Shown: in pieces, positions 1,715 through 25,789 of the stretch
Numbering within the stretch: the first letter of the stretch is position 1
Layout of the letters: each line of letters begins with the position of its first letter
From: Escherichia phage IME178
Strand: one strand, 5' to 3'
Length of the DNA: 64,000 bases
Sequence record: NC_104190.1
Translations under genes and position numbers: made by a program
Notes under the pieces: model-generated
The model's database searches: none
What the model saw: the letters and a program-made list of their open reading frames with translations, nothing else
Told to the model about the DNA's origin: nothing

Positions 1715-1808
1715 TGATTTTTATTAGCTGAACTATGATTACCGAGTCATTTTGGCTCGGTTTTATCCGTACTCAAGACCAATGATAGCACCATCCGGAA
1801 AATTTTAC

Positions 1809-1837
1809 TTGCAGGATGCCCAAAATCTTGATATAAT
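1809..1837 (+). promoter_or_regulatory. sigma70-type early promoter (TTGCAG, 17-bp spacer, TATAAT) with conserved downstream ATTGAATTGAGAGA
   Basis: Member of a repeated promoter family in this window; sits about 500 bp upstream of the likely start of the 2338..5127 gene. Confidence 0.4.
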
Positions 1838-2337
1838 ATTTATATTGAATTGAGAGACATTAGTAAAAATTGATTTTGCTAATTTTTCTTGTTTACAATC
1901 CGCGATACGGAACAGTTAGGCTGCCCCATTAAGGGTTGTTTTAACTGTTACATGTTAGTTTTTAAACAAATAGTTAATAGAATACTTAGCGATCTGCGCC
2001 CCATAGGAACCCTGGTAAGGCCTCGAAGCAACCTAGTATGAGGTGGTTGTGAAGTGAGATGGGAGGAGTGAAAAACTACCGAGACGTGATTCTGTAAGTT
2101 ATATTGCATCTAGTATGAGCTAGTATATGAAGCATTAGGTGAGCAAATCTGGCTTAGCGGCCATCCTCAAGGATTTGTGCGATATAGCAAAGCAGCAGCG
2201 CAGCGTGAAAGTGGAAGTTGCCACCCCACTTCAGTATTTGCGATTAATTTGTTGAGAAATTGACAGTAACAGTTGTTCTATTCTTTCTGAATAGTCCTAA
2301 AGAAAATTTATTTCATTTCCAACACAGGAGTATTGTT

Positions 2338-5127
2338 GTGTTCTCAATCCTACAAGGTCATGCAGGATTTCATCGCGATTTAGCCACAGGCAATTGGCGA
2401 GAAGTTAAAGCAGAAGATTATCTTTTTGCTAAAAGATTTTCCTCAAAGCATCCTGAAGGTAAACCAGCTTCAATGCCCTTCAAGTTTGATGTAATTGATG
2501 AAGTTGATCCTCAAACCCTAGTAGAAATGCTTCCTCTTATGAGACGTTTAACGTCTGACCCTCATATCGTTGCGGTACGAGGTAGATGTCTTGCACCTAA
2601 AAATAATGTGCGACGTAAGAAGGGCAACTTTAATGTATCTAACCCAAGTCATATAATTGCAATGGACGTGGATGGTATTGTGGATACAGGTGGTTGTAAC
2701 AAGTTTGATCTTGTTGGCATGGCTCGACATATTATTAGAATGTTAAATAGTATTAGTGAGGATATGTTTCCTCTTGATGCAGGGTTTATCGCTCATGCAT
2801 CGTCTTCGGCTGGGCTAAAACCAGGTATCCGAATGCACTTAATACTAGAATCTAATGTTAAAGTAACTCAGGGTCAAATCAAATTCTTATTTACATCTAT
2901 CAATGAAAGTAGTAGACAAAAGTATGGCTTTGATATTGCCGACTTAGCTTATTACTCTTCCGTACAGCTCCATTATTTTGCAGATCCGTTATTTACCGAT
3001 GGTATAGTAGATCCGTTTAAAGCGGAGGGTGCTTCACGTCTGGTATTTGTTAAAGGTTCTAAAGTAAATTTACCAAATAATCTGGTTGACTATGAAACAA
3101 CTAGAGGTGAGTTTAAGGAGGAGTTTTACTCTTTACTCGATCAAATTAAAGGTAAAAAAGCTGCCTCTGATAAAGTAGAGGAAACTATCAGCGAACTAGA
3201 AGAAGCTGAGGATGGGGTGTACTTGCGTATTATCCCCAAACTATACCATAGAGCATTAGAGGATGGTGTTGATTTTGCATGGCTAGAAAAAGAAATCCGT
3301 CCAGCCTTATCAGAATATATCGCAACTAAAGATAACAGTCGTAATATTCAAGATTACTTTAATAACGGTCGTAAACAGGCTCTGAAAGCATTTGTTAATA
3401 ATTCTAAACGCGATATACCTGATGTTTTAAAAGGTATTCCACTTAAAAAGCTAGAAACTAACTCCCTAGAAACTGATAACTTCTTGAAATTAAATACTGT
3501 GCCACCAGAAGGTTATATGACTTTTGTAAAAGCAAGTCTAGGTACAGGTAAAACCACGGCGGTTGTGCGTTGGTTAGATTCAGGAGTTATTAAAGGTAAT
3601 TTCTTAGCAATTACCAATACTAGAGCGCTGGTGTCTTCAAATGCTAAGAAATTCAGTGCAGGACAATATGATAAGTCTGTAGATATGCTTAATTTTAAGC
3701 GTGGTGCTATTGACCGTATGTCCACAACTATTCACTCTTTGCATAAGTTCAAGAGTTTTATTGGTCAAATTGATGCAATCTTTATCGATGAATGTGATGC
3801 TGTAATGAATGACCTGTTATTCGCCCCGGTTGTTAAACAACGTCGTGAGTGTATTCAGGTTCTTCGGGATATTCTTGCAACTGCAAAAATCATTATATTA
3901 TCAGATGGTGATATTAGTGCAGAAACAATTGAAGCATATGGTTCCTTGATTGAGTTTGATAAACCGGTTGCATTTTATAATCACCACCGTAAGATGTTGT
4001 CAAAAGCTCATGCTTATGAGTTCCCTGATGAATCCAGTATTTGGGTTGCACTTCAGACTTCTCTAGAGATGGGTGAGAAATCTATTCTGGTATCTGACTG
4101 TGGCCCTGATGAGCTGAATGAGAAGGGCATGGCATTACGTCGTAATACGGGTGCGTTAGTTAAGGAAATCCACTCAAACTCTACGTCTGATGTAGATATT
4201 CGACGTATTCTGGATTACACAACTAATGAGCTAATTGACCAACAAATTGATTGCTTATTATGTAGTCCATCCGTAACTAGTGGTGTTGACTTCAACTATT
4301 TTGATAACGTATTCGTTATTACTAGAACCAGCAACCAAGCGCCAAACATGCGTTTCCAAGCAATCAGGCGCGACCGTGGTGCTCAGAACATCTATTATTT
4401 TATTGATAAATCTACGAGTGGATTCTCCGCAGGTTCTGAACAATATAACATTGATGAAGGTTGGCTGGAGTTAGCACAGCAATTATACGCACGTCGCAGG
4501 GAGCTGGAATCTAGGAACTATACTAGTACTTTACGTTATTACTTGCTTGATCAGGGTGCAACTATTGATATTTTCAGTGAAAGCTGGGGAACTATCGAAG
4601 GTGCAGGCAAAGAGTATACAGAAGAGCGAATCAAAGCCATTTTGTATTCAACTCCTGATTATTGCGCTCCACGTCATGCGGATGCGTATGAAGCTAAACT
4701 ACTTCTTGTTCGCTACTATCATCTTGAGTCTATTAAAGATGTAACAGTTGAGCATGTTGAACAATATATCAAGGATAAACCGAATGATCGAGCTGCATTC
4801 TTCCATAAAATGCACGAGATGTTCTGGGAAGATATTAAGAAGTGTTCAAACGTCACTATCAAACCATTCATAGAAGCTCTGAAAGGTAAGAAGAAAGATT
4901 TCTTCCTTAAAACAGGTCAGAGTGCTAACCCAAAATATGCGAGAATGTATCTTGGTATGATGGGTATTGGTAAGGATATGAACACTGAAAATATTGTAGA
5001 CTGGTACAGAACCTATTGTAAAATCGAGTGTATGCCAATCCCATATAAGTTTATGACTGATGAGGAGAAACATATGCATGATGAAGCAATGGCAGAGCTA
5101 GGTGCTAGAAATGACAGTGAAGAATAA
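2338..5127 (+). CDS. putative primase-helicase: AEP-like primase domain fused to P-loop NTPase
   Basis: Long ORF (track 2260..5127); likely start GTG 2338 after RBS AGGAG. N-terminal IIAMDVDGI and GIRMHLIL resemble AEP primase motifs I/II; Walker A GTGKT and Walker B IFIDECD follow. Confidence 0.65.
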   Translation: MFSILQGHAGFHRDLATGNWREVKAEDYLFAKRFSSKHPEGKPASMPFKFDVIDEVDPQTLVEMLPLMRRLTSDPHIVAVRGRCLAPKNNVRRKKGNFNVSNPSHIIAMDVDGIVDTGGCNKFDLVGMARHIIRMLNSISEDMFPLDAGFIAHASSSAGLKPGIRMHLILESNVKVTQGQIKFLFTSINESSRQKYGFDIADLAYYSSVQLHYFADPLFTDGIVDPFKAEGASRLVFVKGSKVNLPNNLVDYETTRGEFKEEFYSLLDQIKGKKAASDKVEETISELEEAEDGVYLRIIPKLYHRALEDGVDFAWLEKEIRPALSEYIATKDNSRNIQDYFNNGRKQALKAFVNNSKRDIPDVLKGIPLKKLETNSLETDNFLKLNTVPPEGYMTFVKASLGTGKTTAVVRWLDSGVIKGNFLAITNTRALVSSNAKKFSAGQYDKSVDMLNFKRGAIDRMSTTIHSLHKFKSFIGQIDAIFIDECDAVMNDLLFAPVVKQRRECIQVLRDILATAKIIILSDGDISAETIEAYGSLIEFDKPVAFYNHHRKMLSKAHAYEFPDESSIWVALQTSLEMGEKSILVSDCGPDELNEKGMALRRNTGALVKEIHSNSTSDVDIRRILDYTTNELIDQQIDCLLCSPSVTSGVDFNYFDNVFVITRTSNQAPNMRFQAIRRDRGAQNIYYFIDKSTSGFSAGSEQYNIDEGWLELAQQLYARRRELESRNYTSTLRYYLLDQGATIDIFSESWGTIEGAGKEYTEERIKAILYSTPDYCAPRHADAYEAKLLLVRYYHLESIKDVTVEHVEQYIKDKPNDRAAFFHKMHEMFWEDIKKCSNVTIKPFIEALKGKKKDFFLKTGQSANPKYARMYLGMMGIGKDMNTENIVDWYRTYCKIECMPIPYKFMTDEEKHMHDEAMAELGARNDSEE

Positions 5128-5344
5128 AAAATGGGAAACAAGGAAGTTTCCAGTAAAAGAACGTAAAGTTCCTGTTTACGACACTTCGGAAAAGCTATGT
5201 AGGGTGGTACCGCATAGACTAGCTGGCATCCCTAACATATCCGAGTGGTTACTTAAACAACGGAAAACTAACGTGTCTCTTCGCGTAGGCTTTGAGTTAG
5301 ATAAAGTCTATGCTGAACTTGCTTCTTTGCTCAAGGAATCGTAA
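5111..5344 (+). CDS. hypothetical protein
   Basis: ORF track 5102..5344; ATG at 5111 overlaps the end of the upstream gene. Confidence 0.35.
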   Translation: MTVKNKKWETRKFPVKERKVPVYDTSEKLCRVVPHRLAGIPNISEWLLKQRKTNVSLRVGFELDKVYAELASLLKES

Positions 5345-5352
5345 AAATTTAT

Positions 5353-5381
5353 TTGCATAGTGCAAAAAATTTCTGTATAAT
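5353..5381 (+). promoter_or_regulatory. sigma70-type early promoter (TTGCAT-17-TATAAT) with conserved ATAAATTTGAGAGAGGAG leader
   Basis: Leader/RBS runs directly into the ATG at 5413. Confidence 0.5.
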
Positions 5382-5412
5382 AGATTCATAAATTTGAGAG
5401 AGGAGTTTAAAT

Positions 5413-6117
5413 ATGGCTGGTTCTCGTAGAAAGAAACATATCCATGAAATCCCGGATGAAGTCTTTAAAAAGGTTATAGAGCATCTGGAGAACGGTGGTA
5501 CTAAGAAAGCAGCATGTGAAATGCTCGGCGTATCGTCCAATCCAACTATGGAAAGGATGATTGAAGAATGGCAAGACCGCCAGATTCAGGTTGCCGAAAT
5601 GAAGAAAAAGAAACGTGGCACTCTCATTGAAGGCATTGAGTTAGCCAACGTTATTGAGCAGTATTTATCTGGTGATTCTTTTGAAGAAATTGCCGATCGT
5701 AATTATCGCTCTGTAGCAATGGTTAAATCTGTTCTGGAACGATATGGTGCTCTACTTCGTTTGAACGATATTGTAGATCCATTGAATCCTCCAATTATTC
5801 CTGATGATGCTGTAGCAGAAGAATTTGCAGTTGGTGAGCTTGTTTGGGTTCCTGGATACCAGTGTATCGGTGAAATCAAAAAAGCAATGGATAATCCTGT
5901 TGGTTGTTACCGTGTATGGCTTCTATCAGAAGGCAAACAACAGAACGTTCATTATATGAATTACGAGTTGGCCTCTGTTAAACATCTGGAAAAGTTAGGG
6001 GTTGACGTAAAATCTCTAGGATATAAATGGACTAGTGAAGAAATTATTACGTTGATTAACGAAGCTGTTAAGGCTGCCCTGAAACTTGATAAAGAAAAAG
6101 GAAAACGCCGTGAGTAA
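5413..6117 (+). CDS. helix-turn-helix DNA-binding protein (putative regulator)
   Basis: 234 aa; two HTH-like stretches (GGTKKAACEMLGVSSNPTMERMIEEW and SFEEIADRNYRSVAMVKSVLERYG). Confidence 0.55.
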   Translation: MAGSRRKKHIHEIPDEVFKKVIEHLENGGTKKAACEMLGVSSNPTMERMIEEWQDRQIQVAEMKKKKRGTLIEGIELANVIEQYLSGDSFEEIADRNYRSVAMVKSVLERYGALLRLNDIVDPLNPPIIPDDAVAEEFAVGELVWVPGYQCIGEIKKAMDNPVGCYRVWLLSEGKQQNVHYMNYELASVKHLEKLGVDVKSLGYKWTSEEIITLINEAVKAALKLDKEKGKRRE

Positions 6118-6373
6118 GCTAACAGATTTGCTTAAAGATGGAGATGTAAAATATCTCCAGCGGGATAGCTGGGGTAATTGGGATGCTCGTACTTATTACT
6201 CTACTATTATAAAAGTAGATGTTGATAATAATGATATTATCGAGTTTACCTGGTGGCCCAATGAAGATGGGTATACCAAGTTCGATATAAAAGACGCAAC
6301 ATGGAAGACCACCTCCCTAACCCTAGAAGAAGCTCTGGCGGATGATTGGGAGATCGTTGAGCTAGATGTATAG
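6110..6373 (+). CDS. hypothetical protein
   Basis: ORF track 6086..6373; probable GTG start at 6110 after AAGGA, overlapping the upstream stop. Confidence 0.45.
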   Translation: MSKLTDLLKDGDVKYLQRDSWGNWDARTYYSTIIKVDVDNNDIIEFTWWPNEDGYTKFDIKDATWKTTSLTLEEALADDWEIVELDV

Positions 6374-6393
6374 CAGTTATCGAAAAATTTCAG

Positions 6394-6422
6394 TTGCTTA
6401 ATCCTATAATTCTTGATATAAT
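6394..6422 (+). promoter_or_regulatory. sigma70-type early promoter (TTGCTT-17-TATAAT)
   Basis: Same family; upstream of the gene at 6480. Confidence 0.45.
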
Positions 6423-6479
6423 ATTCTCATAGTTTGAAAGAACTATTCTGTTTAATTCTTAATTAAGGAAATATAAAAT

Positions 6480-6890
6480 ATGACTACTCCAACTCAGTGG
6501 ACTGATGAACTGTTCGAAAAAATGTCTTCCGAATACGTTGCTCGTATGGAACAATTCCCAGAGGATGAACGTCCTGGTGTTAGCATGGAAATTGTTAGCG
6601 AAATTGCCCAGGAAAATGGTGTAACTCCGAACGGTTTTCGTATGAAGCTAACTAAAGCAGGTTTGTATATCAAGAAAGCTGCTGGCTCTGCTTCTAAATC
6701 TAGTGCATCTACTGGAGAAAAAGCTTCTGGTGGTTCTCGCACTTCTAAAGCTCAAGCTCATGCCGACCTTCGTTCAGCATTCTCTGATGCTGGCCTAGCA
6801 CCAGATTTTCTGGATGATGCAATTATCGACAAACTGACCGGTAAAGCGGCTGCTCATCTGGCAGAAGCAATCCGAGCTATCACTAAGTAA
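6480..6890 (+). CDS. A2-like paralogue (small, apparently highly expressed protein)
   Basis: 136 aa with E. coli-optimal codons; shares W(T/N)(D/E)E, EIA(Q/K), KLT(K/S)A and a C-terminal KL(T/E) helix with the 135-aa A2-like ORF at 56311..56718. Confidence 0.6.
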   Translation: MTTPTQWTDELFEKMSSEYVARMEQFPEDERPGVSMEIVSEIAQENGVTPNGFRMKLTKAGLYIKKAAGSASKSSASTGEKASGGSRTSKAQAHADLRSAFSDAGLAPDFLDDAIIDKLTGKAAAHLAEAIRAITK

Positions 6891-6926
6891 TTTTTAGATA
6901 AATCCACCAACAAAAGGAACACAGTT

Positions 6927-7223
6927 ATGACCAAAGCTGAAATTATCGCACAATGTGAAAAATTTGGTGAGTTTTATCTTCATTACGAGAAACTTCGTCA
7001 GAAAGGAACCACATACCTTCAGGGTACGATGGAATTTGATCCAGCCCAAGATAAATATCTAGCTGAGCGTATTAAACGTGAACGTATTCGTAAAGCGAAA
7101 GATGATGAGATCCTTGTCTTCTCTCGTACTAATGATAGTTTCCGTTTTATTCCTGTCGAGAAAGTCCGTCGTGTGACTAGCCTCCAATCAGAGTTAGATC
7201 GTGCTTCTCCAGTAGGCCGATAA
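6927..7223 (+). CDS. hypothetical protein
   Basis: 98-aa ORF followed by a terminator hairpin. Confidence 0.5.
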   Translation: MTKAEIIAQCEKFGEFYLHYEKLRQKGTTYLQGTMEFDPAQDKYLAERIKRERIRKAKDDEILVFSRTNDSFRFIPVEKVRRVTSLQSELDRASPVGR

Positions 7224-7233
7224 GAAACCAATT

Positions 7234-7256
7234 AGCCCCTATATGGGGCTTTTTGT
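7234..7256 (+). terminator. rho-independent terminator (AGCCCCT-ATAT-GGGGCT + T-run)
   Basis: Perfect stem followed by TTTTTG. Confidence 0.6.
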
Positions 7257-7273
7257 GTATTTGGAATATGTAA

Positions 7274-7582
7274 ATGAGCGAACAGGTAAATCAAAACTAT
7301 GAAGGACACGTTGATGACCAGTCCATCATACTTTGGGAGAAGGAGGGAGAACAAGTAAGATTAACAGTATCTGAATTTCGTGGGAATCTATACATGGGTA
7401 TTCGTTACTGGCTTCTTGATATTAATGATGAATGGTTTCCAACGAAATCTGGCTTCTCTTTTCCTTACACCCTAGAAACAACATCACAGCTTTTCTATGC
7501 GTTTACACAGATTCTTAGCGAATCTGAGGTTTTACATGAAGTACAGAAACGAGCTGAAGAACTCAAAGCCAAGAATGCCTAG
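7274..7582 (+). CDS. hypothetical protein
   Basis: 102-aa ORF; stop codon lies inside the terminator stem. Confidence 0.5.
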   Translation: MSEQVNQNYEGHVDDQSIILWEKEGEQVRLTVSEFRGNLYMGIRYWLLDINDEWFPTKSGFSFPYTLETTSQLFYAFTQILSESEVLHEVQKRAEELKAKNA

Positions 7583-7596
7583 TTCTTGGCTTTTTC
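7568..7596 (+). terminator. rho-independent terminator (GCCAAGAA...TTCTTGGC + TTTTT)
   Basis: Inverted repeat followed by T-run. Confidence 0.6.
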
Positions 7597-7609
7597 TTTA
7601 TAAATGTAT

Positions 7610-7638
7610 TTGCTTTCAACTCAGTTTTATTATATAAT
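7610..7638 (+). promoter_or_regulatory. sigma70-type early promoter (TTGCTT-17-TATAAT) with conserved ATAAATTGATGAGAGA leader
   Basis: Upstream of the ligase N-terminal ORF. Confidence 0.5.
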
Positions 7639-7669
7639 ATTTATATAAATTGATGAGAGATATAAATAA

Positions 7670-8640
7670 ATGACTAATGTAAAAGACTTTATTAAACGCT
7701 GTCAAGAAGCATATTATCAAGGTATGTCTTTAATCTCTGACGAAGAATATGATCGTCTGATTAAAAGATTTCCATTAGAAGAAGAGATCGGGCCTAAGGG
7801 TGATATTCCACATCTGTATCGTATGTATTCTTTACAGAAAGTTTATTATAATCGTGGAGATAAACCTCCGTTCAACCCGTTAGGTCAGGTAGAAACTGAT
7901 AAGTTAGATGGTTGTGCGATTTCTCTGTTATATATTAATGGAGAATTTGTTCAAGCACTAACTCGTGGTAATGGTATTCTAGGGAATGATGTCACAAGCA
8001 ACGTAAGATTGCTGAATATCCCTAAAAAGATTTCCCAAAAAGTACCTACTCAAATCACTGGTGAAGTTCTAATTACAAAAGAAGTAGAAAATAAACGTAA
8101 CTTTGCCTCTGGTGCTATTAACCTCAAAGATAGCGATGATTTCGTACAACGTATTGGGGAAGGTGGTTTAATCTTCGTTGCATATGGTATCCAGTGTTCT
8201 GCTGAATCTGTAGGTATTACAGAAGCGTACTTAAAAGATATGCTCTGGCTGGAGAATGAGACTTCTTAACAGTTGTTAATGTGCGTTCCTTCTTTAAGTG
8301 GATTCCGACGGATGGTAAAGTTGTTCGTATTAATGACAACAACAAATTCTTCCGTGAAGGCTGGACTAATAAATTTCCTCGTGGAGCATTCGCTATTAAA
8401 GAAGATGAAGAAGGCGAGATTACAACTCTTACTAAAGTTGAATGGCAGGTAGGGGCTTCTGGTAAAGTAACTCCAGTTGGTTATTTCGAATCGGTAATTA
8501 TTGATGATGCTACAATTGTTAAGGCGACTCTTAATAACGTTGATTATATTAACTCTCTTGATCTAGAGATCGGTTGCCAGATTCGAGTAATTCGTGCTGG
8601 TGGTGTAATCCCGTGCATAGTAGAGCGAGTATACGATTAA
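7670..8640 (+). CDS. NAD-dependent DNA ligase, N-terminal subunit (adenylation + OB domains); frame break near 8260-8269
   Basis: Two track ORFs (7670..8269, 199 aa, KLDG KxDG motif; 8281..8640, 119 aa) in different frames separated by 11 bp; together about 322 codons. Confidence 0.6.
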
Positions 8641-8692
8641 TATATGTAACCCTTTGCTACCCATCTACCATATAGGAATTATAAAGTGGTTA

Positions 8693-8721
8693 TTGACATT
8701 TTCGCCGCTTAGGTATATACT
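8693..8721 (+). promoter_or_regulatory. near-consensus sigma70 promoter (TTGACA-17-TATACT) inside the ligase spacer
   Basis: Followed by a 7-codon mini-ORF (MARVSKVS). Confidence 0.4.
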
Positions 8722-8785
8722 ATTATCATTCAGTTGAGGGATAGAAAGTTATGGCGAGGGTAAGCAAAGTTAGTTAAAATTGTAG

Positions 8786-8814
8786 TTGCTAAATGCTTAA
8801 ATACTTGCTATAAT
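8786..8814 (+). promoter_or_regulatory. sigma70-type early promoter (TTGCTA-17-TATAAT) with conserved leader
   Basis: Same family; leader AAATTGATAAGGAAG precedes ATG 8845. Confidence 0.5.
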
Positions 8815-8844
8815 ATTTATATAAATTGATAAGGAAGAAATTTG

Positions 8845-9615
8845 ATGAAAATCGAAATTCCAACACAATGTCCCTCTTGTGGTTCTAAGCTAGATCTTGT
8901 CAATGGACAATTATTCTGTCGTAATAAGTCCAACTGTCCAGCGCAATCAAGTAAGTTAATTGAGAACTTCTGTACAAAAATGAAGTTAAAGGGCTTTGGT
9001 CCAAAAACTATTGAGAAGCTGGAGCTGACGAAGATTTCAGAACTATTTTACCTAACCGAACAAGATTTGGTTAGAGCCGTGGGTAGCAAGGTTGCCGCTA
9101 AGTTAATTAGCGAATTAAATACTAAAGTTCGCGGAGACATTGACTTTGGTTCAGTTCTCGGTTCTTTAGGAATCCCTCTAATAGGAGAGGTTGCAGCAAA
9201 GAAATTATCCCAAAATTGCAACAGCTTCCATGATGTGAAGGCTGACGGCAAGGCTGGAGAAAACTATAAAGCCTGGCTAAATTCCCCACAAGGCAAGGAT
9301 GTTATCGAACTACCGTGGAAATTCTCAACTGGTGCTAAAGCTAAAACCGTCGTTACTGATGATTTAGTTGCCCAGCCAAATGGAATCGCGGTATGTATTA
9401 CCGGGTCTTTGCAAGACTTTGCAAATAGAACGGATGCAACAAACTATTTAGAAGGTCTAGGATATACGGTTAAGAAATCCGTTACCAAAGACGTCAAATA
9501 CCTGATCTGTGAGGATGAATCAAAACGTTCTTCCTCATCTTATAAGAAAGCCGAAACGAATGGGATAGAAATCCTGTCGATTAAAGAACTATTGGAGAAA
9601 AATAATAATGTCTAA
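8845..9615 (+). CDS. NAD-dependent DNA ligase, C-terminal subunit (Zn-finger, HhH, BRCT-like)
   Basis: CPSCGS...CRNKSNCPAQ zinc-finger motif; ORF track 8842..9615, ATG at 8845. Confidence 0.65.
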   Translation: MKIEIPTQCPSCGSKLDLVNGQLFCRNKSNCPAQSSKLIENFCTKMKLKGFGPKTIEKLELTKISELFYLTEQDLVRAVGSKVAAKLISELNTKVRGDIDFGSVLGSLGIPLIGEVAAKKLSQNCNSFHDVKADGKAGENYKAWLNSPQGKDVIELPWKFSTGAKAKTVVTDDLVAQPNGIAVCITGSLQDFANRTDATNYLEGLGYTVKKSVTKDVKYLICEDESKRSSSSYKKAETNGIEILSIKELLEKNNNV

Positions 9616-10375
9616 ACTGAACTGGAACGTAGAAGGTGTAACCGAGTCTCTGAAAGCAAAAGCCACTGCTCTGGGTGTTTCTGTAATCTCTCAAGAACAA
9701 GTAGCTGCTATCGCTGCTGAACTGGCTGCTGAAACTGGCAAAGATGTTACTGCTCGCTCTGTTGGCTCTAAACTGCGTAAAGAAGGTTTTGAAGTACAGA
9801 AAGCTAACGAAGTACAGAAATCCCCGTGGACTCCTGAGCAGGAAGCTGAACTGGTTGATTTCCTGAACGCTCATGCTGGTCAGTATACCTATGCTGAAAT
9901 CGCTGCTGCTGTAGCTGGTGGTCAGTTCGGTGCTAAGCAGGTACAGGGTAAGATTCTGAGCCTGGAAATGACCGCTTCTGTTAAGCCAACCGAAAAAGCT
10001 GCTGCTGTTCGTTCCTTCACTCCGGATGAAGAAACTGATTTTGTTAATCAGGTTGTTGCTGGTGCTACTATTGAAGCTATCGCTGCTCACTTCGGTCGTA
10101 ATATCAAGCAGATCCGTGGTAAAGCTCTGAGCCTGCTTCGTGAAGGTCGTATCGCTGCTATGCCGGTACAGGAAACTTCAAGTGCTAAAACTCGTGAAGA
10201 TTTGTTAGAAGGTCTGGATCTGGTTAACATGACTGTTGCTGAGATCGCTGAGAAAACTGGTAAGTCTGAGCGCGGTGTTAAATCTATGCTGTCTCGTCGT
10301 GGTCTGGTTGCTAAGGACTATGATGGTGCCGCTAAGCGTGCTAAACTGGATGCAAAAGCTGCGGCTGCTGAATAA
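9608..10375 (+). CDS. D5-like abundant early DNA-binding protein with four internal HTH-like repeats
   Basis: 255 aa, strongly E. coli-optimal codons; repeated module (W/F)TP(E/D)..E...V...(TYAEIAAAV/TIEAIAAHF)G....(Q/R)GK.LSL. Confidence 0.55.
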   Translation: MSKLNWNVEGVTESLKAKATALGVSVISQEQVAAIAAELAAETGKDVTARSVGSKLRKEGFEVQKANEVQKSPWTPEQEAELVDFLNAHAGQYTYAEIAAAVAGGQFGAKQVQGKILSLEMTASVKPTEKAAAVRSFTPDEETDFVNQVVAGATIEAIAAHFGRNIKQIRGKALSLLREGRIAAMPVQETSSAKTREDLLEGLDLVNMTVAEIAEKTGKSERGVKSMLSRRGLVAKDYDGAAKRAKLDAKAAAAE

Positions 10376-10392
10376 TCTGGTAAATTAAACCT

Positions 10393-10425
10393 AAGGGGAG
10401 GGGGCTATGCTCCTTCCCCTTTTTG
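10393..10425 (+). terminator. rho-independent terminator (GGGGAGGG...CCTTCCCC + TTTT)
   Basis: GC-rich hairpin and T-run directly after the D5-like stop. Confidence 0.6.
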
Positions 10426-10457
10426 CATTTAGAAGGCACGAAAGCGTGCAAAGGAGA

Positions 10458-11930
10458 ATGACCTTGTTTAACGTGCAAGCTGTAGTGTTGAAGATGCTTC
10501 TAGCTTCTGAACAGAAGCAAATAGCATTGGAAACATTCTCAAAACTGCATAAAGATCATTTTAATGACGCTTTCTCCTCAATTTACCAAGCCGTCCAGAA
10601 TTATTATAAAAAATATAACACAATGCCGTCCATTGACGCACTGATGCTTGAAGCTAATAGGAACGCCCGCCTTTCTCAAGCTCTAGTCGTCTTAGCTAAC
10701 ACTCAAATTCCAGAAGTGAGCATGGAACAGGCACTTGAAGTCCTAGAGGCTGAATATACACAGGATTTATTCCTGAAGCTTCTAGAAACAGACGTGCTTC
10801 AAGATTTAACAATGCTGGATCAGGGAGAAATTCTCAACCGAGTTGCCTCCCTTCACTTAAAATTAGAAGAGAAAGTAACGAATACTGGAAAAGTATTCAA
10901 CGCAGATAACATGCGTATTTTCCAGAGAGAAGAAGATACCAAACTGAACCTAATCGCTCTTGGTATTTGTAATGAGTTTGACGCTCAAATTGGTTTAGCT
11001 CGCACAGAAACGTTACTGCTTGGTGGTTGGCGTGGTACTGGTAAATCCATTATCTGTTCAAACATACAGGTTCAGCAATATTTGAATGGAGATATTGCTC
11101 CATACTTCTCAATTGAGATGAAAGAACATGAAGTATTTAGACGTAATCTAGCCATGTTAGCTGGTGTATCCGCACTAGCAATGCGTAATAATACTCTAGA
11201 AGGTGCAGCTCTGCTGAGATTAGCCAGAACTAGAGCTAGAATGTTTAATGGCGGTGAAGAGCTTTTCGATAACTTCGTTAAACAGTACACAATGGCTAAG
11301 ATGAGTGATTTCTACGATATGGAGAGTAAACTAATAGAAGGGTATGAACTACATACTCCTATGATTATCGTTTATGACCCTGAACTGTCCATTACAACAG
11401 TTGATGTAGAATTAAATAAATTAGTTGCTAGATATGGTGATAAAGTTACAGTAGCTTTATTGGACTATATTAACCAAACCCGACTTCCAGACTCTAAAAC
11501 CATTGATATGTATGACTGGAAAGAACAGATGGTTGTTAGCTCGTCTTTCAAATCTATCTGCCAGAAACATAACGTGGCTGGCGTAGCTCCTTACCAGATC
11601 GATCAAGATGGTAGAACACGTATGTCAAAGGGTATTCTTGATTCCGCAGACATGGCTGCTAATCTTAATGCTGCAAAAGCTGATAATGGTCAAGGTGCTA
11701 TTATGTTTGACTTCGTTAAGACTCGTTCTTCTGATAGCGTGAAGTTTATGCCTAAAATGAACTGGGAAACCTTGCGGATGGATAACACTACCAACCTAGC
11801 GATGGAAGATATATCTCAAATGGAAGCTGAGTTCGTTATCCCTATTGAGAAGGATAAGCCGGCTCAACCTAAACGTGCTAAGAAAGACAAAACCGAAAAT
11901 TCAACAGGTGAACAGGCCAGCGATATATGA
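10458..11930 (+). CDS. DnaB-like replicative DNA helicase
   Basis: Walker A GGWRGTGKS and FSIEM motif; track ORF starts at 10407 inside the terminator, ATG 10458 follows RBS AAGGAGA. Confidence 0.65.
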   Translation: MTLFNVQAVVLKMLLASEQKQIALETFSKLHKDHFNDAFSSIYQAVQNYYKKYNTMPSIDALMLEANRNARLSQALVVLANTQIPEVSMEQALEVLEAEYTQDLFLKLLETDVLQDLTMLDQGEILNRVASLHLKLEEKVTNTGKVFNADNMRIFQREEDTKLNLIALGICNEFDAQIGLARTETLLLGGWRGTGKSIICSNIQVQQYLNGDIAPYFSIEMKEHEVFRRNLAMLAGVSALAMRNNTLEGAALLRLARTRARMFNGGEELFDNFVKQYTMAKMSDFYDMESKLIEGYELHTPMIIVYDPELSITTVDVELNKLVARYGDKVTVALLDYINQTRLPDSKTIDMYDWKEQMVVSSSFKSICQKHNVAGVAPYQIDQDGRTRMSKGILDSADMAANLNAAKADNGQGAIMFDFVKTRSSDSVKFMPKMNWETLRMDNTTNLAMEDISQMEAEFVIPIEKDKPAQPKRAKKDKTENSTGEQASDI

Positions 11931-12818
11931 GTAGAATAACAGAACTACTTGATCTGAAAGGCATTGAATATAAAGACACAGGTGGGGACATCCTCATCTG
12001 TTGTCTCAATCCAGATCATGACGATAAACACCCAAGTTTGCGTATTGATCCTGAAACAGGTATTATGCACTGCTTGAGTTGTGGCTTCGGTAAAGGTATA
12101 CCGAGCATTTACCATTATTTTAATGAGACTCAGTACCGACAGTCCCCAAGGCTATCGCAAGTACGTAAAAAGATTTCAGAGATTAGGAATGGGTCAACGA
12201 ATCTTGCAATTCCTGAATCTGCTTACCTTTTCGAAGGTGATTTCCGAGGTATAAGTTCTAAGACCTTGAAGAAATATTTTGCTTTCCAACACCAAGCAGA
12301 CTGGGAAGGCAGAATTGTATTCCCAATCACAGATGCTGTTGGACGCAATATCCTATTTTTGGGTCGTTCTATAAACAGTTCTGCCCCTCCTAAATACTTA
12401 GTAAAACCAAAACAAGTTTCACCACCAATTTTTCCTGTACGATATAATACCCCAATTCTTATTCTAGTTGAAGGTATCTTTGATATGCTGAATCTAGAGG
12501 ATAATGGTATAGACTATGCTTCTTGTTGCTTCGGTACACATCAGTTTACTTCAGATAACATTGCAGATAAGTTTAGTCCGTATATTATTGCTGGTGTTAA
12601 AGTTGTTGTTATCTTACTAGATAATGATGCTTCTGGTAATAAAGCTGCACAAGCACTGGCTAAGCTAATTCGTACAAAAAACGCGTTTAACACCTGTAGT
12701 TGCTAACTTTCTTCTGCCTGAAGGTAAAGACCCAGGTGACTTAAGTAAAGAAGAAATTGATATGTTAGCAAAACGTATTGAAATTTTAGTTGCTGAATCG
12801 CTTAAAGATTTGGTATAA
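11927..12818 (+). CDS. DnaG-like DNA primase (zinc-binding + TOPRIM); frame break at A6 run near 12676-12681
   Basis: CCLNPDHDDKHPSLRIDPETGIMHCLSCGFGKG zinc motif; track ORF ends 12706 but the +1 frame continues with LPEGKDPGDL (TOPRIM-like) to stop at 12818. Confidence 0.65.
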
Positions 12819-15837: not shown

Positions 15838-16327
15838 TTTCAAATTGCCCGTATATGCTTTACGGGCTTTTGTATCAATTGAGCAAGAAGGTGATTATTC
15901 CGTAATTACAACAAGATATAATAAATATGTGCTAGATAACAGGAAGTTGCCTGGCACTTTTTCTCAACGTAGGCTTATTCTATTTGAGAAACGGAAAGAA
16001 TTACCATATAAGCTCTATCCTATTAGAGGTAGAATATCAATGTTGTCTCAATTAGTTGGGTCAAAGCGTAGCCAATTTATAGATTCTGATGGAAATCTTA
16101 TTAACTGGAAGAAAACTACGTTCTATGATGTTGTCACCTCTAAAGTTTTGCATTCAGCTAGAATTTATAACGGAAAATACCAATGCTATGTAGCTAAAGT
16201 TCCGTATCCATTTGTATTATCCTATGTTCCAGCTTATATAAGCTATATTCTGGTAAATAATAGCCCTGTTATTTATCAAGTCCATCAAGAGGAGCCTGAA
16301 ATTCCTAGACTTAGAATAAAATTATGA
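15830..16327 (+). CDS. hypothetical protein (start uncertain, possibly ATG 16039)
   Basis: 165-aa track ORF begins inside the polymerase terminator; a shorter ATG-initiated version is more plausible. Confidence 0.35.
   Translation: MLDFKLPVYALRAFVSIEQEGDYSVITTRYNKYVLDNRKLPGTFSQRRLILFEKRKELPYKLYPIRGRISMLSQLVGSKRSQFIDSDGNLINWKKTTFYDVVTSKVLHSARIYNGKYQCYVAKVPYPFVLSYVPAYISYILVNNSPVIYQVHQEEPEIPRLRIKL
15847..15872 (+). terminator. rho-independent terminator (GCCCGTA-TATGCTT-TACGGGC + TTTTG)
   Basis: Perfect 7-bp stem directly after the polymerase stop. Confidence 0.55.
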
Positions 16328-17676
16328 AGGTTGTTATATCTAATAAAGCCTATTTCAAGCCCGATGATGAACTTTGGGATTATTGTAGTAAGCAAACCAC
16401 TTATCACATAGAGACAATGACTAGTAAATACCCTATTATGTATAAGAATAGTGGTGTTGTTGCCAAAGAGATTAAGTGGATTCCTATTACACGTCTGGAC
16501 TTACTAGATGCTAAAGGAGTAAAATACGAATTAGTAGATAAACGTACATTAGCTCCGGTAGATATACCAAAACCTAAGTTCAAGCTGCGTGAAGAAGACC
16601 AGCTCCCAATATATGAAGAGTGCGATGATACCTGTATTATTAATGGTAAGCCTGGGTTTGGTAAAACTATCCTAGCCCTTGCACTTGCGTATAAATTTGG
16701 CCAGAAAACTTTGGTAATCTGTACGAATACATCCATTCGTGAAATGTGGGCGGCAGAAGTTCGTAAATGGTTTGGGTTTGAACCGGGCATTATAGGTTCT
16801 GGGAAATACAATATTGATCCACCAATTGTGGTCAGTAATATTCAAACAGTGAATAAACATGCGAATAATCTTTCTAAAGTATTCGGTACTGTTATAGTTG
16901 ATGAAGTTCACCATTGTGTGGCTACAACTTTCACTAACTTCCTAGAAATATCATGTGCTCGCTATAAAATTGGACTATCCGGCACATTAAAACGGAAAGA
17001 TGGTCTACAAGTTATGTTCAAAGATTTCTTTGGATATAAGATCTTTAGCCCCCCGGTTAATAATACTGTTGCACCTACAATCCATAGGTACTCCGTACCT
17101 GTTGAGTTATCAGGAAACCAAAACGTACCATGGGCATTACGTGCTAACGATGTGTATAATCATCCTAAATATCGAGAGACTATTATAAACCTGGCACATT
17201 TATACGTGAATATGGGGCATAAAGTACTCATTGTAAGTGATAGAACAGAGTTAATCCAAACAGTATTAGAAGCTCTTGCACAGCGTGGTGTTACAACATA
17301 TGAAATTATAGGGGCAACCCACTTAGATGACCGATTAAAAATTCAGGAAGATATAGCAAAAGGTGGACCTTGTGTACTTGCAGCAGCTCAAAGCATCTTC
17401 TCTGAAGGTATTTCTCTTAATGAGTTGTCTTGTTTAATAATGGGAAGTCTCATTAATAATGAGTCTCTCATTGAACAGCTTGCAGGTCGTGTTCAACGTA
17501 TTGTCGATGGTAAACTCGACCCTATTGTTGTAGATCTAATTATGAAAGGTGGCACTGGACTAAGACAGGCTTCTGGACGTATGGCAGTATATCGTAACAA
17601 CGGGTGGAAAACTATTACCATGACTCCTGAGAAAGCAGTTCAATTAGCTAAAATTGCATTTGGCAACAGCTCATAA
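16324..17676 (+). CDS. SF2 ATP-dependent DNA helicase (D10-like)
   Basis: 450 aa; Walker A GKPGFGKT, DEVH box (VIVDEVHHC); ATGA start/stop overlap with the upstream ORF. Confidence 0.7.
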   Translation: MKVVISNKAYFKPDDELWDYCSKQTTYHIETMTSKYPIMYKNSGVVAKEIKWIPITRLDLLDAKGVKYELVDKRTLAPVDIPKPKFKLREEDQLPIYEECDDTCIINGKPGFGKTILALALAYKFGQKTLVICTNTSIREMWAAEVRKWFGFEPGIIGSGKYNIDPPIVVSNIQTVNKHANNLSKVFGTVIVDEVHHCVATTFTNFLEISCARYKIGLSGTLKRKDGLQVMFKDFFGYKIFSPPVNNTVAPTIHRYSVPVELSGNQNVPWALRANDVYNHPKYRETIINLAHLYVNMGHKVLIVSDRTELIQTVLEALAQRGVTTYEIIGATHLDDRLKIQEDIAKGGPCVLAAAQSIFSEGISLNELSCLIMGSLINNESLIEQLAGRVQRIVDGKLDPIVVDLIMKGGTGLRQASGRMAVYRNNGWKTITMTPEKAVQLAKIAFGNSS

Positions 17677-21784: not shown

Positions 21785-22267
21785 ATGGCTGTAGATAGTA
21801 GAGAGAAAGGCAAACGTGGTGAATATCAAGTAAGAGATATTTTACGTGAACGTACAGGTCTTGAGTGGGAACGTGTTCCTGGCTCTGGTGCTTTTGGCCA
21901 GAGCCATGGACTGAAGGGTGACATCTACCTTCCACCACAAAGCGGACACATTAGTAAATACTGCTTCGAAGTTAAGTGGTATAAAGATGATGCATTATCA
22001 AGTAATTTATTTAATGTTGGTGAATCTACTCTAGAGAAGTGGTGGCAGCAGTGCTCACGTGAAGGTGAGCAGATGAACTCCAAACCTGCATTAATATTCA
22101 AAAAAGACAGAGGACAGTGGTTAATAGCTTTGGATAGTTCAGACCCGATGGTTGACAACTTAATGAGTCGTACCCATATGGTGTTAAATAAGAAAGACAT
22201 GGAGATCGTAATTGGTTTATTTGAGCCGTGGCTACATCATGCATCTGTTGAGGACTTAATTAAATAA
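21785..22267 (+). CDS. Hjc-like Holliday-junction resolvase / PD-(D/E)xK nuclease
   Basis: KGKRGEYQVRDILRERTG...ERVPGSGA...GDIY...FEVKWYK matches the Hjc-type resolvase pattern. Confidence 0.5.
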   Translation: MAVDSREKGKRGEYQVRDILRERTGLEWERVPGSGAFGQSHGLKGDIYLPPQSGHISKYCFEVKWYKDDALSSNLFNVGESTLEKWWQQCSREGEQMNSKPALIFKKDRGQWLIALDSSDPMVDNLMSRTHMVLNKKDMEIVIGLFEPWLHHASVEDLIK

Positions 22268-23142
22268 TGAGTAAATCCTGGGGAAAATTTATTGAAGAAG
22301 AGGAAGCTGAAATGGCTTCCCGTCGTAATCTAATGATTGTTGATGGAACTAACTTAGGCTTTCGCTTCAAGCATAACAATAGTAAAAAACCATTTGCCTC
22401 AAGTTATGTTTCTACGATTCAATCTCTAGCAAAATCTTATTCTGCTAGAACTACAATAGTTTTAGGAGATAAAGGGAAGTCTGCATTCCGCTTAGAGCAT
22501 CTTCCAGAGTATAAAGGGAATCGAGATGAGAAATACTCTCAGCGTACGGAAGAGGAGAAAGCGTTAGATGAGCAGTTCTTCGAGTATTTGAAAGATGCTT
22601 TCGAACTATGTGAAACTACATTTCCAACCTTCACTATTCGTGGCGTAGAAGCAGATGATATGGCAGCTTATATTGTTAAGCTGATTGGGCATCTTTATGA
22701 TCATATTTGGCTAATTTCTACCGATGGTGACTGGGATACTTTATTAACTGATAAAGTATCTCGCTTCTCTTTCACAACACGTCGTGAATACCATCTTCGT
22801 GATATGTATGAGCATCATAATGTTGACGATGTAGAGCAGTTTATCTCTCTGAAAGCAATTATGGGTGATTTAGGAGATAATATCCGTGGTGTTGAGGGTA
22901 TTGGGGCAAAACGCGGGTATAACATTATTCGTGAATTTGGTAACGTTCTGGATATTATTGATCAGCTTCCACTGCCTGGAAAACAGAAATATATACAGAA
23001 TTTAAATGCTTCGGAAGAGTTGCTTTACCGAAACCTAATTCTGGTTGATTTACCTACCTACTGTGTGGATGCTATTGCTGCTGTAGGTCAAGATGTACTA
23101 GATAAGTTTACAAAAGATATTTTGGAGATTGCAAGACAATGA
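22267..23142 (+). CDS. flap endonuclease / 5'-3' exonuclease (D15-like)
   Basis: 291 aa, the length known for T5 D15; acidic metal-binding clusters and H3TH-like region. Confidence 0.8.
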   Translation: MSKSWGKFIEEEEAEMASRRNLMIVDGTNLGFRFKHNNSKKPFASSYVSTIQSLAKSYSARTTIVLGDKGKSAFRLEHLPEYKGNRDEKYSQRTEEEKALDEQFFEYLKDAFELCETTFPTFTIRGVEADDMAAYIVKLIGHLYDHIWLISTDGDWDTLLTDKVSRFSFTTRREYHLRDMYEHHNVDDVEQFISLKAIMGDLGDNIRGVEGIGAKRGYNIIREFGNVLDIIDQLPLPGKQKYIQNLNASEELLYRNLILVDLPTYCVDAIAAVGQDVLDKFTKDILEIARQ

Positions 23143-23585
23143 TTAAAATTAAGTTAACCCATCCAGATTGTATGCCTAAGATTGGTTCCGAAGATGCCGC
23201 AGGTATGGATCTACGAGCATTCTTTGGTACTAACCCTGCTGCAGATTTACGTGCTATTGCACCAGGCAAATCCTTAATGATTGACACCGGTGTCGCGGTA
23301 GAAATTCCGCGAGGTTGGTTCGGTTTGGTAGTTCCTCGCAGCTCTTTAGGTAAACGCCATCTGATGATTGCAAATACCGCAGGAGTGATCGACTCAGACT
23401 ATCGTGGAACTATTAAGATGAACCTTTATAACTATGGTTCTGAAATGCAAACTCTGGAGAATTTTGAAAGACTTTGTCAACTAGTAGTAGTACCACACTA
23501 CTCAACGCATAATTTTGAAATAGTTGATAAACTAGGGGAGACTGATCGTGGAGAAGGCGGATTTGGAAGCTCAGGAAGTAAATAA
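23139..23585 (+). CDS. dut: dUTP diphosphatase (dUTPase)
   Basis: 148 aa with conserved dUTPase motifs (AAGMDL, PRSS, IDSDYRG, RGEGGFGSSG). Confidence 0.85.
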   Translation: MIKIKLTHPDCMPKIGSEDAAGMDLRAFFGTNPAADLRAIAPGKSLMIDTGVAVEIPRGWFGLVVPRSSLGKRHLMIANTAGVIDSDYRGTIKMNLYNYGSEMQTLENFERLCQLVVVPHYSTHNFEIVDKLGETDRGEGGFGSSGSK

Positions 23586-23605
23586 TTTACATATCAAATA
23601 AATAA

Positions 23606-23641
23606 TAAACCCCAATGGACAAAATCCATTGGGGTTTTTAT
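23606..23641. terminator. bidirectional terminator hairpin between convergent early (+) and late (-) blocks
   Basis: AACCCCAATGG-ACAAAAT-CCATTGGGGTT flanked by T-runs on both strands. Confidence 0.65.
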
Positions 23642-25789
23642 TTACTTACTTGCCTTTAATTCCGCAATCTCAGCTTCCATCGCTTCGATCCTCTGCATTA
23701 ATACCTGCACAACGTGCATGGTATCCAGAAGCATCGGCGTGGTGTCCAGCTCCTTCTGCTCCACAACCTCTCCTGGATTATTGCCAACATATTTGCGCGT
23801 CTTAACATATAAAGGCTCAACAACCTCTGCTTGCTGTGCAATCACGCCATGCCGAACTCGATTTTGTTCGTCATTGTCATAAATGAACTCTACAAATTCC
23901 AGCCCTTTAATATTAGAGTATGATTTGTCAACTCCAACAGGGGCGATGCCGTGTTTTACACGTGAGTCAGAAGTACCATTTTTTGTATAACTAAAGTTCC
24001 CGTAATCAGTCGAACCATATATTTGACCATCAATATCAAAAAAGTAACGACAGAATTTTCCATTATCTCCACCGACCACCATGCAAGCTGTACCGAAGGC
24101 ATTATTACCTGGTATGTACATATGGAGCCCTATCTTGGTGGGATATCCGTTGGGGCGATATCCACCAATAGAATAACCACGAACTAGTGTGTCTGAACCG
24201 CTAGCAATGGCTACCCGATCCATGCCGTTGGTAGTCAGGTTGTCTATTCCAGCATCCGTAATGCCATTCCATGTGCCCATAGGCGTATTCATACGGAAGG
24301 TATTAATCTTACCCGATTGGCGGAAGTCTGCCGTACCATCTTCGTAAAACTTATAAGAGTGCTTAGCGGAGCCCTCAGCCTCAATAATCGCAGCCCCCGA
24401 GGAGCCCCAGATAGTATCAGAGTATAGACGAGCAAACCGCTTACCTGCTGGGTTGGAATATTCAGATACTACTTCACCACCACGAACGGAGGTATTCTGC
24501 GGAGGTGCGCTACTATCTGCATTCTTAACACTCCATGATGTATTTGCTGCAACGAAACCACCCGACGCACGGATTACCCACACACCGACAAAGTTTCGTG
24601 TAAGAATTTCATCATTTGATGTTCCGTAAATTGGACTTGAACGTGAGGCGTCAAAATTTAGTGTATTATAGCGCCCAGATAATGCAATATTTCCTGTACT
24701 TGGAATCGCATCCCCATCACCATTAGGAAAAATCGCATTATCAACAAAGAATGCACCACTAGCAGTAGAGCCAAATACCTGGGCGTAGCTAGTACTTGAG
24801 TAGCTAGGAACAGCAGCAGTAATATTAGGTGCAGCAGATTCAAATAGCTGGCCATTTGCACCACTATTTCCACCATCTCCACGACCATAAAGAGCGCGTA
24901 TTGATCCCTCCTGCACCCCATTCTTATCTGGAACACGAAAAGTTGTTGTCCCATTTCCTGATGAGTACTTACCGCGCTGAAATTTATCAGCCAGCCATTT
25001 AGAATCATCTATAGCACCCACCATTTGAGCGTAAGCCCAAAGCTCCGGCCAGTCAGCCCTGTTAAGAAGCTGCCCATCAGAAACTACCTCATAAGGTTGA
25101 ATATACGCACGACTATCGCGAAGGTGAAAATCACCTACACCATAGTTCATGACACCATTCATTGTGGGTCCTACTGTGCCAGTATTAATTTTGTTCTCCA
25201 CCCAACGCTTAGTTACAGCATCATAATCATTAACGGGGTCTCCCGCAAGGGGAGTAGATCCAATAGGTCGCACATTTAGCCACGCAGCTGCGCGATCTGC
25301 TAAATCTGATAAATTATTTTCAGTCAATAGGCTTTCGTCTTTTGTTGGCACATTATAACTTTGTCTAAAAGCTTCTTTTGATACTACTCCAGTACCTCCT
25401 TGTTCTATAGAAAGTGCAGTGGTTAAACCTGTTAAAGATTTAATAGTTGAGTTGGCACCATCCATGTCTATACTAGCAAATCTTGACCATGCAGTCCATG
25501 AATTGTAAAAAGATCTACTATATATCTCATTACGATTATAAGGTAAGTAAATTTGAGTACAAGAAGTCGCTAAATTGCTTGCATTATTTTTTAAAACTAG
25601 TAATGTACCTGCAGCCGCAACAGGATAGTTAAGAGAAGTAGGAGAGTTAGCATTTTCAGATTGCCAATACTTTCCATACACACTCCCATCAAGTGTATTT
25701 AAATTTGTTCCTGTAGTAATTAAACCATATACAGGTAAAGCGGCTACATCAGTAGCCTTTAAGTTAATTTTATCAATTCTAAGAGCCAT
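23642..25789 (-). CDS. L-shaped tail fiber protein (LtfB-like) with C-terminal intramolecular chaperone domain
   Basis: 715 aa; C-terminal ~130 aa resembles the self-cleaving chaperone of T5 pb1-type fibers. Confidence 0.65.
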   Translation of the reverse strand: MALRIDKINLKATDVAALPVYGLITTGTNLNTLDGSVYGKYWQSENANSPTSLNYPVAAAGTLLVLKNNASNLATSCTQIYLPYNRNEIYSRSFYNSWTAWSRFASIDMDGANSTIKSLTGLTTALSIEQGGTGVVSKEAFRQSYNVPTKDESLLTENNLSDLADRAAAWLNVRPIGSTPLAGDPVNDYDAVTKRWVENKINTGTVGPTMNGVMNYGVGDFHLRDSRAYIQPYEVVSDGQLLNRADWPELWAYAQMVGAIDDSKWLADKFQRGKYSSGNGTTTFRVPDKNGVQEGSIRALYGRGDGGNSGANGQLFESAAPNITAAVPSYSSTSYAQVFGSTASGAFFVDNAIFPNGDGDAIPSTGNIALSGRYNTLNFDASRSSPIYGTSNDEILTRNFVGVWVIRASGGFVAANTSWSVKNADSSAPPQNTSVRGGEVVSEYSNPAGKRFARLYSDTIWGSSGAAIIEAEGSAKHSYKFYEDGTADFRQSGKINTFRMNTPMGTWNGITDAGIDNLTTNGMDRVAIASGSDTLVRGYSIGGYRPNGYPTKIGLHMYIPGNNAFGTACMVVGGDNGKFCRYFFDIDGQIYGSTDYGNFSYTKNGTSDSRVKHGIAPVGVDKSYSNIKGLEFVEFIYDNDEQNRVRHGVIAQQAEVVEPLYVKTRKYVGNNPGEVVEQKELDTTPMLLDTMHVVQVLMQRIEAMEAEIAELKASK

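Follow-up and report, generated by a model that had tools for sequence, protein, structure and literature searches.

Two candidate priming modules in the T5-like Escherichia phage IME178: D2 as a putative AEP primase-helicase and a DnaB-like/DnaG-like pair

A stretch of 64,000 nucleotides (nt) from Escherichia phage IME178 (NC_104190.1), hereafter referred to as the window, was analyzed in this study; all coordinates, unless given for another sequence, are positions in this window, and all listed features lie on the + strand. We propose, with a probability of roughly 0.6, that this phage carries two priming modules. The first is the D2 protein, which would join an archaeo-eukaryotic primase (AEP) domain to a UL9-like superfamily 2 (SF2) helicase and act as an initiator-primase, and the second is a gene pair encoding a DnaB-like helicase and a DnaG-like primase. 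The domains of both modules were identified, both active sites are conserved, and the modules are syntenic among relatives of this phage. It is therefore probable that DNA synthesis can be primed in two ways throughout the T5 phage family.

The N-terminal domain of D2

The large protein at the head of the module is encoded by a gene that is already known as D2. The mechanically called open reading frame (ORF) of this region spans 2260..5127 (955 amino acids, TTG start), whereas a GTG codon at 2338, located 8 nt after an AGGAG ribosome-binding site, gives a protein of 929 amino acids. The TTG start was dropped in favor of the GTG because of the AGGAG site and an end-to-end match to PHROG 3712, in which residues 1-926 align with profile positions 1-927. 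A first-pass annotation of the window had given 929-955 amino acids, of which the lower figure is retained and the upper one belongs to the discarded start. Because the residue numbering coincides with that published for T5 D2 (Walker A 396-406, K405, Walker B 475-489), the 929-amino-acid protein is the T5 D2 ortholog. T5-like phages at 97-98% nt identity annotate the gene as "replication origin binding", and some GenBank records label D2 orthologs "DNA primase" or "DNA primase C".

T5 D2 has been characterized as a DNA-dependent ATPase and helicase that unwinds from a 5' or a 3' tail ("bipolar"), and the K405E substitution abolishes both activities (Wong et al., 2013; PMC3632103). In the same study, residues 389-690 were related to herpesvirus UL9 and plasmid Rep helicases and a coiled coil was predicted at 907-928, and the N-terminal ~390 residues were given no assignment except a predicted helix-turn-helix (HTH) at 308-329 (PMC3632103). 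What is added here is the proposal, based on a structural model and on conservation, that residues ~1-250 adopt the AEP fold. No published description of an AEP domain in D2 was found in our literature search.

When 1.84 billion representatives were searched exhaustively with phmmer, 81 relatives of the D2 N-terminal domain were recovered, the closer of which are full-length D2-type proteins. Conservation was assessed in two alignments, one of 40 N-domain homologs and the other of 51 full-length D2 family proteins at 25-82% identity. Invariant positions in the former are D110, D112, D202, and P217, with R81, R93, S155, S157, G159, H167, P226, and R234 at least 90% conserved; in the latter, D110, D112, S155, H167, and D202 are invariant, and conservation at S157 and G159 reaches at least 90%. 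The AEP catalytic residues are also at least 95% conserved among 95 full-length relatives. This pattern is of the AEP type, with DxD in motif I, S-S-S-x-G...H in motif II, and an aspartate in motif III. The first-pass annotation had pointed to two AEP-like strings and to Walker A/B motifs in this protein, all of which were found where it had placed them. The two strings coincide with motifs I and II, the second (GIRMHLIL, residues 163-170, nt 2824-2847) lying inside the motif II region; motif III is additional, and five catalytic residues prove to be invariant across the family. The acidic triad and the histidine (D110, D112, H167, and D202) thus appear to be intact in the D2 domain.

In distant relatives, the domain is N-terminal and directly precedes PriCT_2, D5_N, DUF5906, Pox_D5, or VapE modules. 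One of these proteins (P0045) contains the domain at residues 7-258, followed by PriCT_2 (246-323), D5_N (414-567), DUF5906 (599-711), and Pox_D5 (775-862). The D2-type domain here occupies the slot that is taken by the AEP in D5-type primase-helicases.

An AlphaFold model computed from the single N-domain sequence was unusable (predicted local distance difference test, pLDDT, 34.7), and the 40-sequence alignment was used instead, which raised the pLDDT to 89.9. This model has an AEP fold, in which strand 104-114 carries D110 and D112 and strand 164-176 carries H167. All of the top 50 Foldseek matches in the PDB belong to the AEP superfamily, led by the polymerase domain of LigD (E 1.1e-3, probability 0.99). 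Other AEP matches include AsfvPrimPol, RepB', Prim-PolC, S-2L PrimPol, D5/E5 (vaccinia virus D5 and monkeypox virus E5), herpes simplex virus UL52, CAPP, and human PrimPol. Among predicted viral structures (BFVD), the matches past the orthologs are phage primases and primase-helicases. A non-primase fold, which would have gone against the first-pass reading, was not seen: AEP primase-polymerases are the only structures that the confident model matches at length.

The Foldseek scores are moderate, and therefore the fold call rests on four consistent lines of evidence together. From the model and the conserved motifs, we consider it very likely that the N-terminal domain of D2 has the AEP fold. 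Set beside these matches, a spurious resemblance, i.e., chance motifs on an unrelated alpha/beta fold, is extremely improbable. As a member of the AEP superfamily, the domain is divergent and not catalogued; the kind of system it belongs to is not new.

The D2 helicase, the DnaB-like/DnaG-like pair, and their conservation

The P-loop part of D2 is a UL9-like SF2 helicase, a more specific identity than the first-pass annotation had stated. It matches Pfam Herpes_ori_bp (PF02399) with 29.2 bits (cut-off 20), and its match to NCBIfam CyRepA1 (NF042913; 4.7e-35) reaches 121.6 bits, below the cut-off of 200 for that family. Among PDB sequences, only herpesvirus UL9 is a significant relative (1.9e-5 when searched with the single sequence, 9.7e-7 with the family profile), with the matches confined to the first RecA-like domain (profile positions 51-197 of 820, UL9 residues ~80-234). 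The 51-sequence alignment shows no variation in helicase motifs I, II, V, and VI (Walker A, Walker B, SPSxTxGxD, and QAxxRxR). The helical bundle in front of the helicase is conserved only in full-length D2-type proteins, and no family or PDB match was obtained for the C-terminal region (Pfam, NCBIfam, and PDB).

The second module consists of the separate helicase and zinc/TOPRIM primase that had been recognized in the first-pass annotation, both of which pass Pfam gathering scores. The DnaB-like protein has the C-terminal RecA-like domain of DnaB with its Walker A motif; it scores 31.4 bits against TIGR00665 (cut-off 385), and an N-terminal DnaB domain was not seen by Pfam at E <0.01. A zinc ribbon (C26/H31...C49/C52), a core N-subdomain, and a TOPRIM domain are all present in the DnaG-like protein, which scores 28.5 against Zn_ribbon_DnaG (cut-off 24.9), 28 against DNAG_N (26), and 32.8 against Toprim_4 (25), with Toprim_2 also above its cut-off. 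It further matches PHROG 47 (1.7e-47) and scores 69 against TIGR01391 (cut-off 284), and a DnaG C-terminal helicase-binding domain was not detected in it by Pfam. Judged by these scores, the two proteins have diverged strongly from their cellular counterparts. The stop codon of the DnaB-like gene overlaps the start of the DnaG-like gene by 4 nt, which is consistent with translational coupling.

The DnaG-like ORF encodes 259 amino acids in the window versus 296 in relatives. The frame does not run intact through the last TOPRIM acidic motif, PEGKDPGD being out of frame behind an extra A. The end at 12818 given in the first-pass annotation is accordingly a stop in the shifted frame, and the in-frame ORF ends at 12706. 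None of 179 related records has the extra A at 12676-12681, and the DnaG-like gene is intact in them. At ~8258, one base is missing relative to relatives, which splits the ligase subunit A gene (ligA, 7670..8640) into 7670..8269 (adenylation domain) and 8281..8640 (OB fold); this indel occurs in none of 183 related records. Two private one-base indels of homopolymer type suggest sequencing error rather than biology, and the frameshift in the DnaG-like gene is probably such an error.

The frameshift bears on a reading in which D2 is the main replicative fork primase-helicase and the DnaB-like/DnaG-like pair is accessory or redundant, which might be the reason that a frameshift is tolerated. Unwinding by D2 in both polarities (PMC3632103) is also in line with such a role, as is the statement, in a survey of viral primases, that most primase-helicase fusions are replicative (PMC4889955). 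We regard this reading as quite improbable, because the frameshift is private among the 179 related records, lies in a homopolymer, and probably reflects sequencing error, as the second private indel in ligA supports, and because conservation and synteny of the pair extend through the whole family.

The window belongs to a T5-like phage, and the whole of the region 2260-12818 shares 97-98% nt identity with many T5-like Salmonella and Escherichia phages. A nucleotide search of the phage collection found 539 phage records in total that match this region. Gene order in the matching records is the same as in the window and, by their annotation, runs from the replication origin binding protein through small proteins, a split NAD-dependent ligase, and a D5-like regulator to a DnaB-like helicase, a DNA primase, a DNA polymerase, and a helicase. 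The order D2, ligA/ligB, D5, DnaB-like, DnaG-like, and PolA is kept in Vibrio phage Ceto (Demerecviridae), in which the D2 N-terminal domain is ~35% identical, and also in metagenomic contigs whose D2 is 33-36% identical. Since this order is kept at 33-36% identity of D2, the two priming modules have traveled together through deep divergence.

Table 1. Coordinates of the D2 gene, the DnaB-like/DnaG-like pair, and their putative domains and motifs
Feature	Position	Strand	Evidence or content
D2-like gene, 929 aa	2338..5127	+	AEP-like domain, helical domain, UL9-like SF2 helicase, C-terminal region
AEP-like catalytic core, about residues 1-250	2338..3087	+	
AEP-like motif I, IIAMDVDGI (D110, D112), residues 106-114	2653..2679	+	Invariant in the 40- and 51-sequence alignments; predicted strand 104-114
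AEP-like motif II, SSSAGLKPGIRMHLIL (S155, S157, G159, H167)	2800..2847	+	Conservation; H167 on predicted strand 164-176
AEP-like motif III aspartate, D202	2941..2943	+	Invariant in both alignments
Helical bundle between AEP-like core and helicase, about residues 260-356	3115..3405	+	Predicted helices 261-356
UL9-like SF2 helicase core, about residues 389-725	3502..4512	+	Pfam, NCBIfam, PDB UL9, motifs
D2 Walker A, GTGKT, residues 402-406	3541-3555	+	
D2 Walker B, FIDECD, residues 482-487	3781-3798	+	
Conserved C-terminal region of D2, about residues 726-929	4513..5124	+	Moderately conserved; coiled coil 907-928 predicted in T5 D2
DnaB-like (SF4) helicase, 507 aa	10407..11930	+	Pfam DnaB_C 35.7 bits (cut-off 27); PHROG 19, 1e-62
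DnaB-like Walker A, GGWRGTGKS, residues 206-214	11022-11048	+	
DnaG-like primase, in-frame part, 259 aa	11927..12706	+	CHC2 zinc ribbon, DNAG_N, TOPRIM E183, D232xD234
A6 run with one extra A, frameshift in DnaG-like gene	12676..12681	+	Alignment to phage I14
Out-of-frame C-terminal 46 codons of DnaG-like primase, including PEGKDPGD	12681..12818	+	Shifted frame matches the 296-aa primase of relatives

Possible roles of D2 and the surrounding genes

As an initiator of the plasmid- or viral-Rep type, D2 would open the duplex at internal start sites with its helicase, and its AEP domain would then place the first primer on the exposed strand. This primer would be elongated by the T5 family-A polymerase, after which the displaced strand would receive the DnaB-like helicase, and repeated lagging-strand primers would be made by the DnaG-like primase. 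The two priming systems may be independent, with the split between origin and lagging-strand priming that the first-pass annotation had suggested. A role of D2 as initiator is favored because the nearest functional analogues of its helicase (UL9 and CyRepA1) are initiators. It is also favored because part of the unwinding by T5 D2 is independent of ATP hydrolysis, and the authors of that study themselves suggested that D2 is an initiator (PMC3632103). A further reason is that plasmids and phages usually start replication with primase-helicase fusions (PMC4889955).

The main rival holds that the AEP domain is a repair or restart PrimPol, which would carry out repriming or gap filling at damage or at the nicks of T5 DNA, with regular priming left to the DnaB-like/DnaG-like pair. 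T5 DNA contains natural single-strand nicks on which such an enzyme could act, and the best structural matches of the domain are AEPs of repair and repriming (the LigD polymerase domain, Prim-PolC, and human PrimPol). The AEP-SF2 helicase protein IEE, moreover, is an Mn-dependent polymerase and end-joining enzyme rather than a replicative primase (PMC9943667). However, the closest relatives of the helicase, UL9 and CyRepA1, are replication initiators, the sequence relatives of the AEP domain are found within primase-helicase replication proteins, and the D2 gene stands at the head of the replication module. A repair function is therefore a possible reading of D2 but not a probable one.

Several observations weigh against D2 as an initiator-primase. 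Primase or polymerase activity of D2 is absent from what the 2013 study reports (PMC3632103). Residues 1-390 match no curated AEP profile in Pfam or NCBIfam and no PDB sequence by phmmer or hmmsearch, and the 40 homologous N-terminal domains have no Pfam match at E up to 10; word-indexed homolog searches likewise provided no route from residues 1-390 to a known AEP family. Neither a zinc finger nor a recognizable PriCT domain that would support dinucleotide synthesis was found in D2, and a hidden Markov model of the helical bundle (residues 255-385) finds only D2-type proteins among the distant relatives, with no link to PriCT-2. The C-terminal origin-binding domain of UL9 is not matched in D2 (Pfam and PDB profile), and "origin binding" is therefore only an inherited label. 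A search of 1650-2400 did not find an origin, iterons, or binding sites next to D2.

The lack of reported priming and of a detectable accessory zinc or PriCT domain, together with a divergence too great for curated AEP profiles, would also suit an AEP-fold domain that is inactive and whose only task is to bind DNA for the helicase or to load it, with the DnaG-like protein as the sole primase. Such a loss of activity is unlikely: neither the metal-binding triad nor the histidine varies even at 25% identity, and these residues are kept in distant relatives with other types of helicase, whereas inactive domains usually lose such residues. An inactive domain, like a main fork enzyme or a spurious fold, is a lesser rival than repair or repriming, and D2 as an initiator-primase remains the preferred reading. 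The name "Primase-helicase (AEP/SF2)" fits the evidence better than "replication origin binding protein".

About 620 nt upstream of D2 (1715..2337) contain only tiny ORFs of 20-53 amino acids, where related records annotate three small hypothetical genes. Within 1650-2400, there are short two-copy repeats and one weak promoter-like site, no terminator, and nothing above chance. Downstream of D2, the product of 5413..6117 (234 amino acids) is called "helicase" in related records (I14 and Ceto); it gave only a sub-threshold HTH_28 match and no P-loop family, and this annotation seems doubtful. The NAD-dependent DNA ligase is encoded in pieces within 7670..9615, with the adenylation and OB parts followed, after a gap of ~200 nt, by HhH and BRCT at 8842..9615; these pieces correspond to the ligA/ligB split, which records of T5-like phages annotate and which distant relatives retain. 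A further SF2 helicase (ResIII and Helicase_C) located after the polymerase at 16324..17676 corresponds to T5 D10, which has been published as a branch-migration protein, and with it the module contains three different helicases. The GC skew turns from positive to negative at ~22000-24000, with the peak of the cumulative skew at about 24 kb, which presumably marks the switch of orientation between early and late genes. Phage vB_EcoS_I14 (PP892525.1) is filed under Ounavirinae/Felixounavirus, yet it is 97% identical to the T5-like region, and the record has probably been misclassified.

How T5, a classical model phage, initiates its replication is poorly understood. An AEP assignment would give a testable job to the unexplained third of D2 and may help to explain its unusual behavior as a helicase, and the sharing of work between two types of primase within one replisome could be tested directly in T5-like phages. 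The D2 protein, its characterized helicase, and AEP-helicase fusions, including those with UL9-like helicases (PMC5862659), are already known, and the novelty is modest because D2 orthologs are already named "DNA primase" in some GenBank records; the AEP domain implies a conserved dual-primase arrangement in a classical phage family. A far wider reading is that D2 is, across Demerecviridae, a self-contained initiator that joins origin opening and priming, the functions of UL9 and UL52, in one chain and then hands over to a DnaB/DnaG fork machine. D2-like proteins would, on the same reading, be placed near the ancestor of the herpesvirus initiation proteins because tailed phages and herpesviruses share a realm, and the rule of either an AEP or a DnaG primase per virus would fail for the family. 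Taken as a whole, we find this wider reading rather doubtful.

Comparison with known systems

The D2 protein of this phage is no different from T5 D2 (AAU05245), with the same length and motif numbering, and its gene lies in the same place, heading the early replication module. In herpesviruses, helicase and AEP primase are located on separate proteins (UL9 and UL52), and UL52 is the partner of the SF1 helicase UL5; the identity between D2 and UL9 is low, and the C-terminal origin-binding domain of the latter has no counterpart match. Primase-helicases of the D5 and pRN1 ORF904 type (AEP, PriCT, and SF3) have the architecture of the distant relatives of the D2 N-terminal domain, and vaccinia virus D5 and monkeypox virus E5 are among its structural matches. 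D2 differs from them in having an SF2 rather than an SF3 helicase and in that PriCT is undetected.

CyRepA1 plasmid Reps (NF042913; Slr7037 of pSYSA) have a homologous UL9-like helicase, as was also found by tblastn, with ~400 residues of a primase-type domain in front of it, and CyRepA1 is essential for replication of the plasmid pSYSA (PMC9978351). In Nostoc pNPUN01 (1822-5295) and in a Legionella fallonii plasmid (1768-4962), we observed CyRepA1 Reps with DUF3854/Toprim_3 before a UL9-like helicase of the D2 type. The N-terminal domains of these two CyRepA1 members are TOPRIM/DUF3854, whereas that of D2 is assigned to AEP, and hhalign of the D2 N-domain profile against the two CyRepA1 N-termini gave no relation. 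An architecture common to D2 and CyRepA1 as a whole was therefore rejected, the helicase alone being common. The All3500-family AEPs (PrimPol-PV1 supergroup) are fused to UL9-like SF2 helicases in bacterial mobile elements (Kazlauskas et al., 2018; PMC5862659). Compared by their description, they have the same domain order as D2, and they were described from bacterial mobile elements rather than T5-like phages. The primase module before a UL9-like helicase is interchangeable, being of either the TOPRIM or the AEP type. This repeated pairing of the helicase with either type of primase supports the N-terminus of D2 as a candidate working primase module.

For the second module, bacterial DnaB-DnaG and T4 gp41-gp61 likewise consist of an SF4 helicase and a zinc-ribbon/TOPRIM primase encoded by adjoining, separate genes. 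A survey of 1574 double-stranded DNA virus genomes reported either an AEP or a DnaG primase per virus, with Rhodothermus phage RM378 as the sole exception (PMC4889955). The whole phage family considered here, with several hundred sequenced genomes in the phage collection searched, would be a second exception to this generalization. RM378, which is unrelated to the phage analyzed here, is described in the survey as encoding both an AEP and a DnaG-type primase (PMC4889955).

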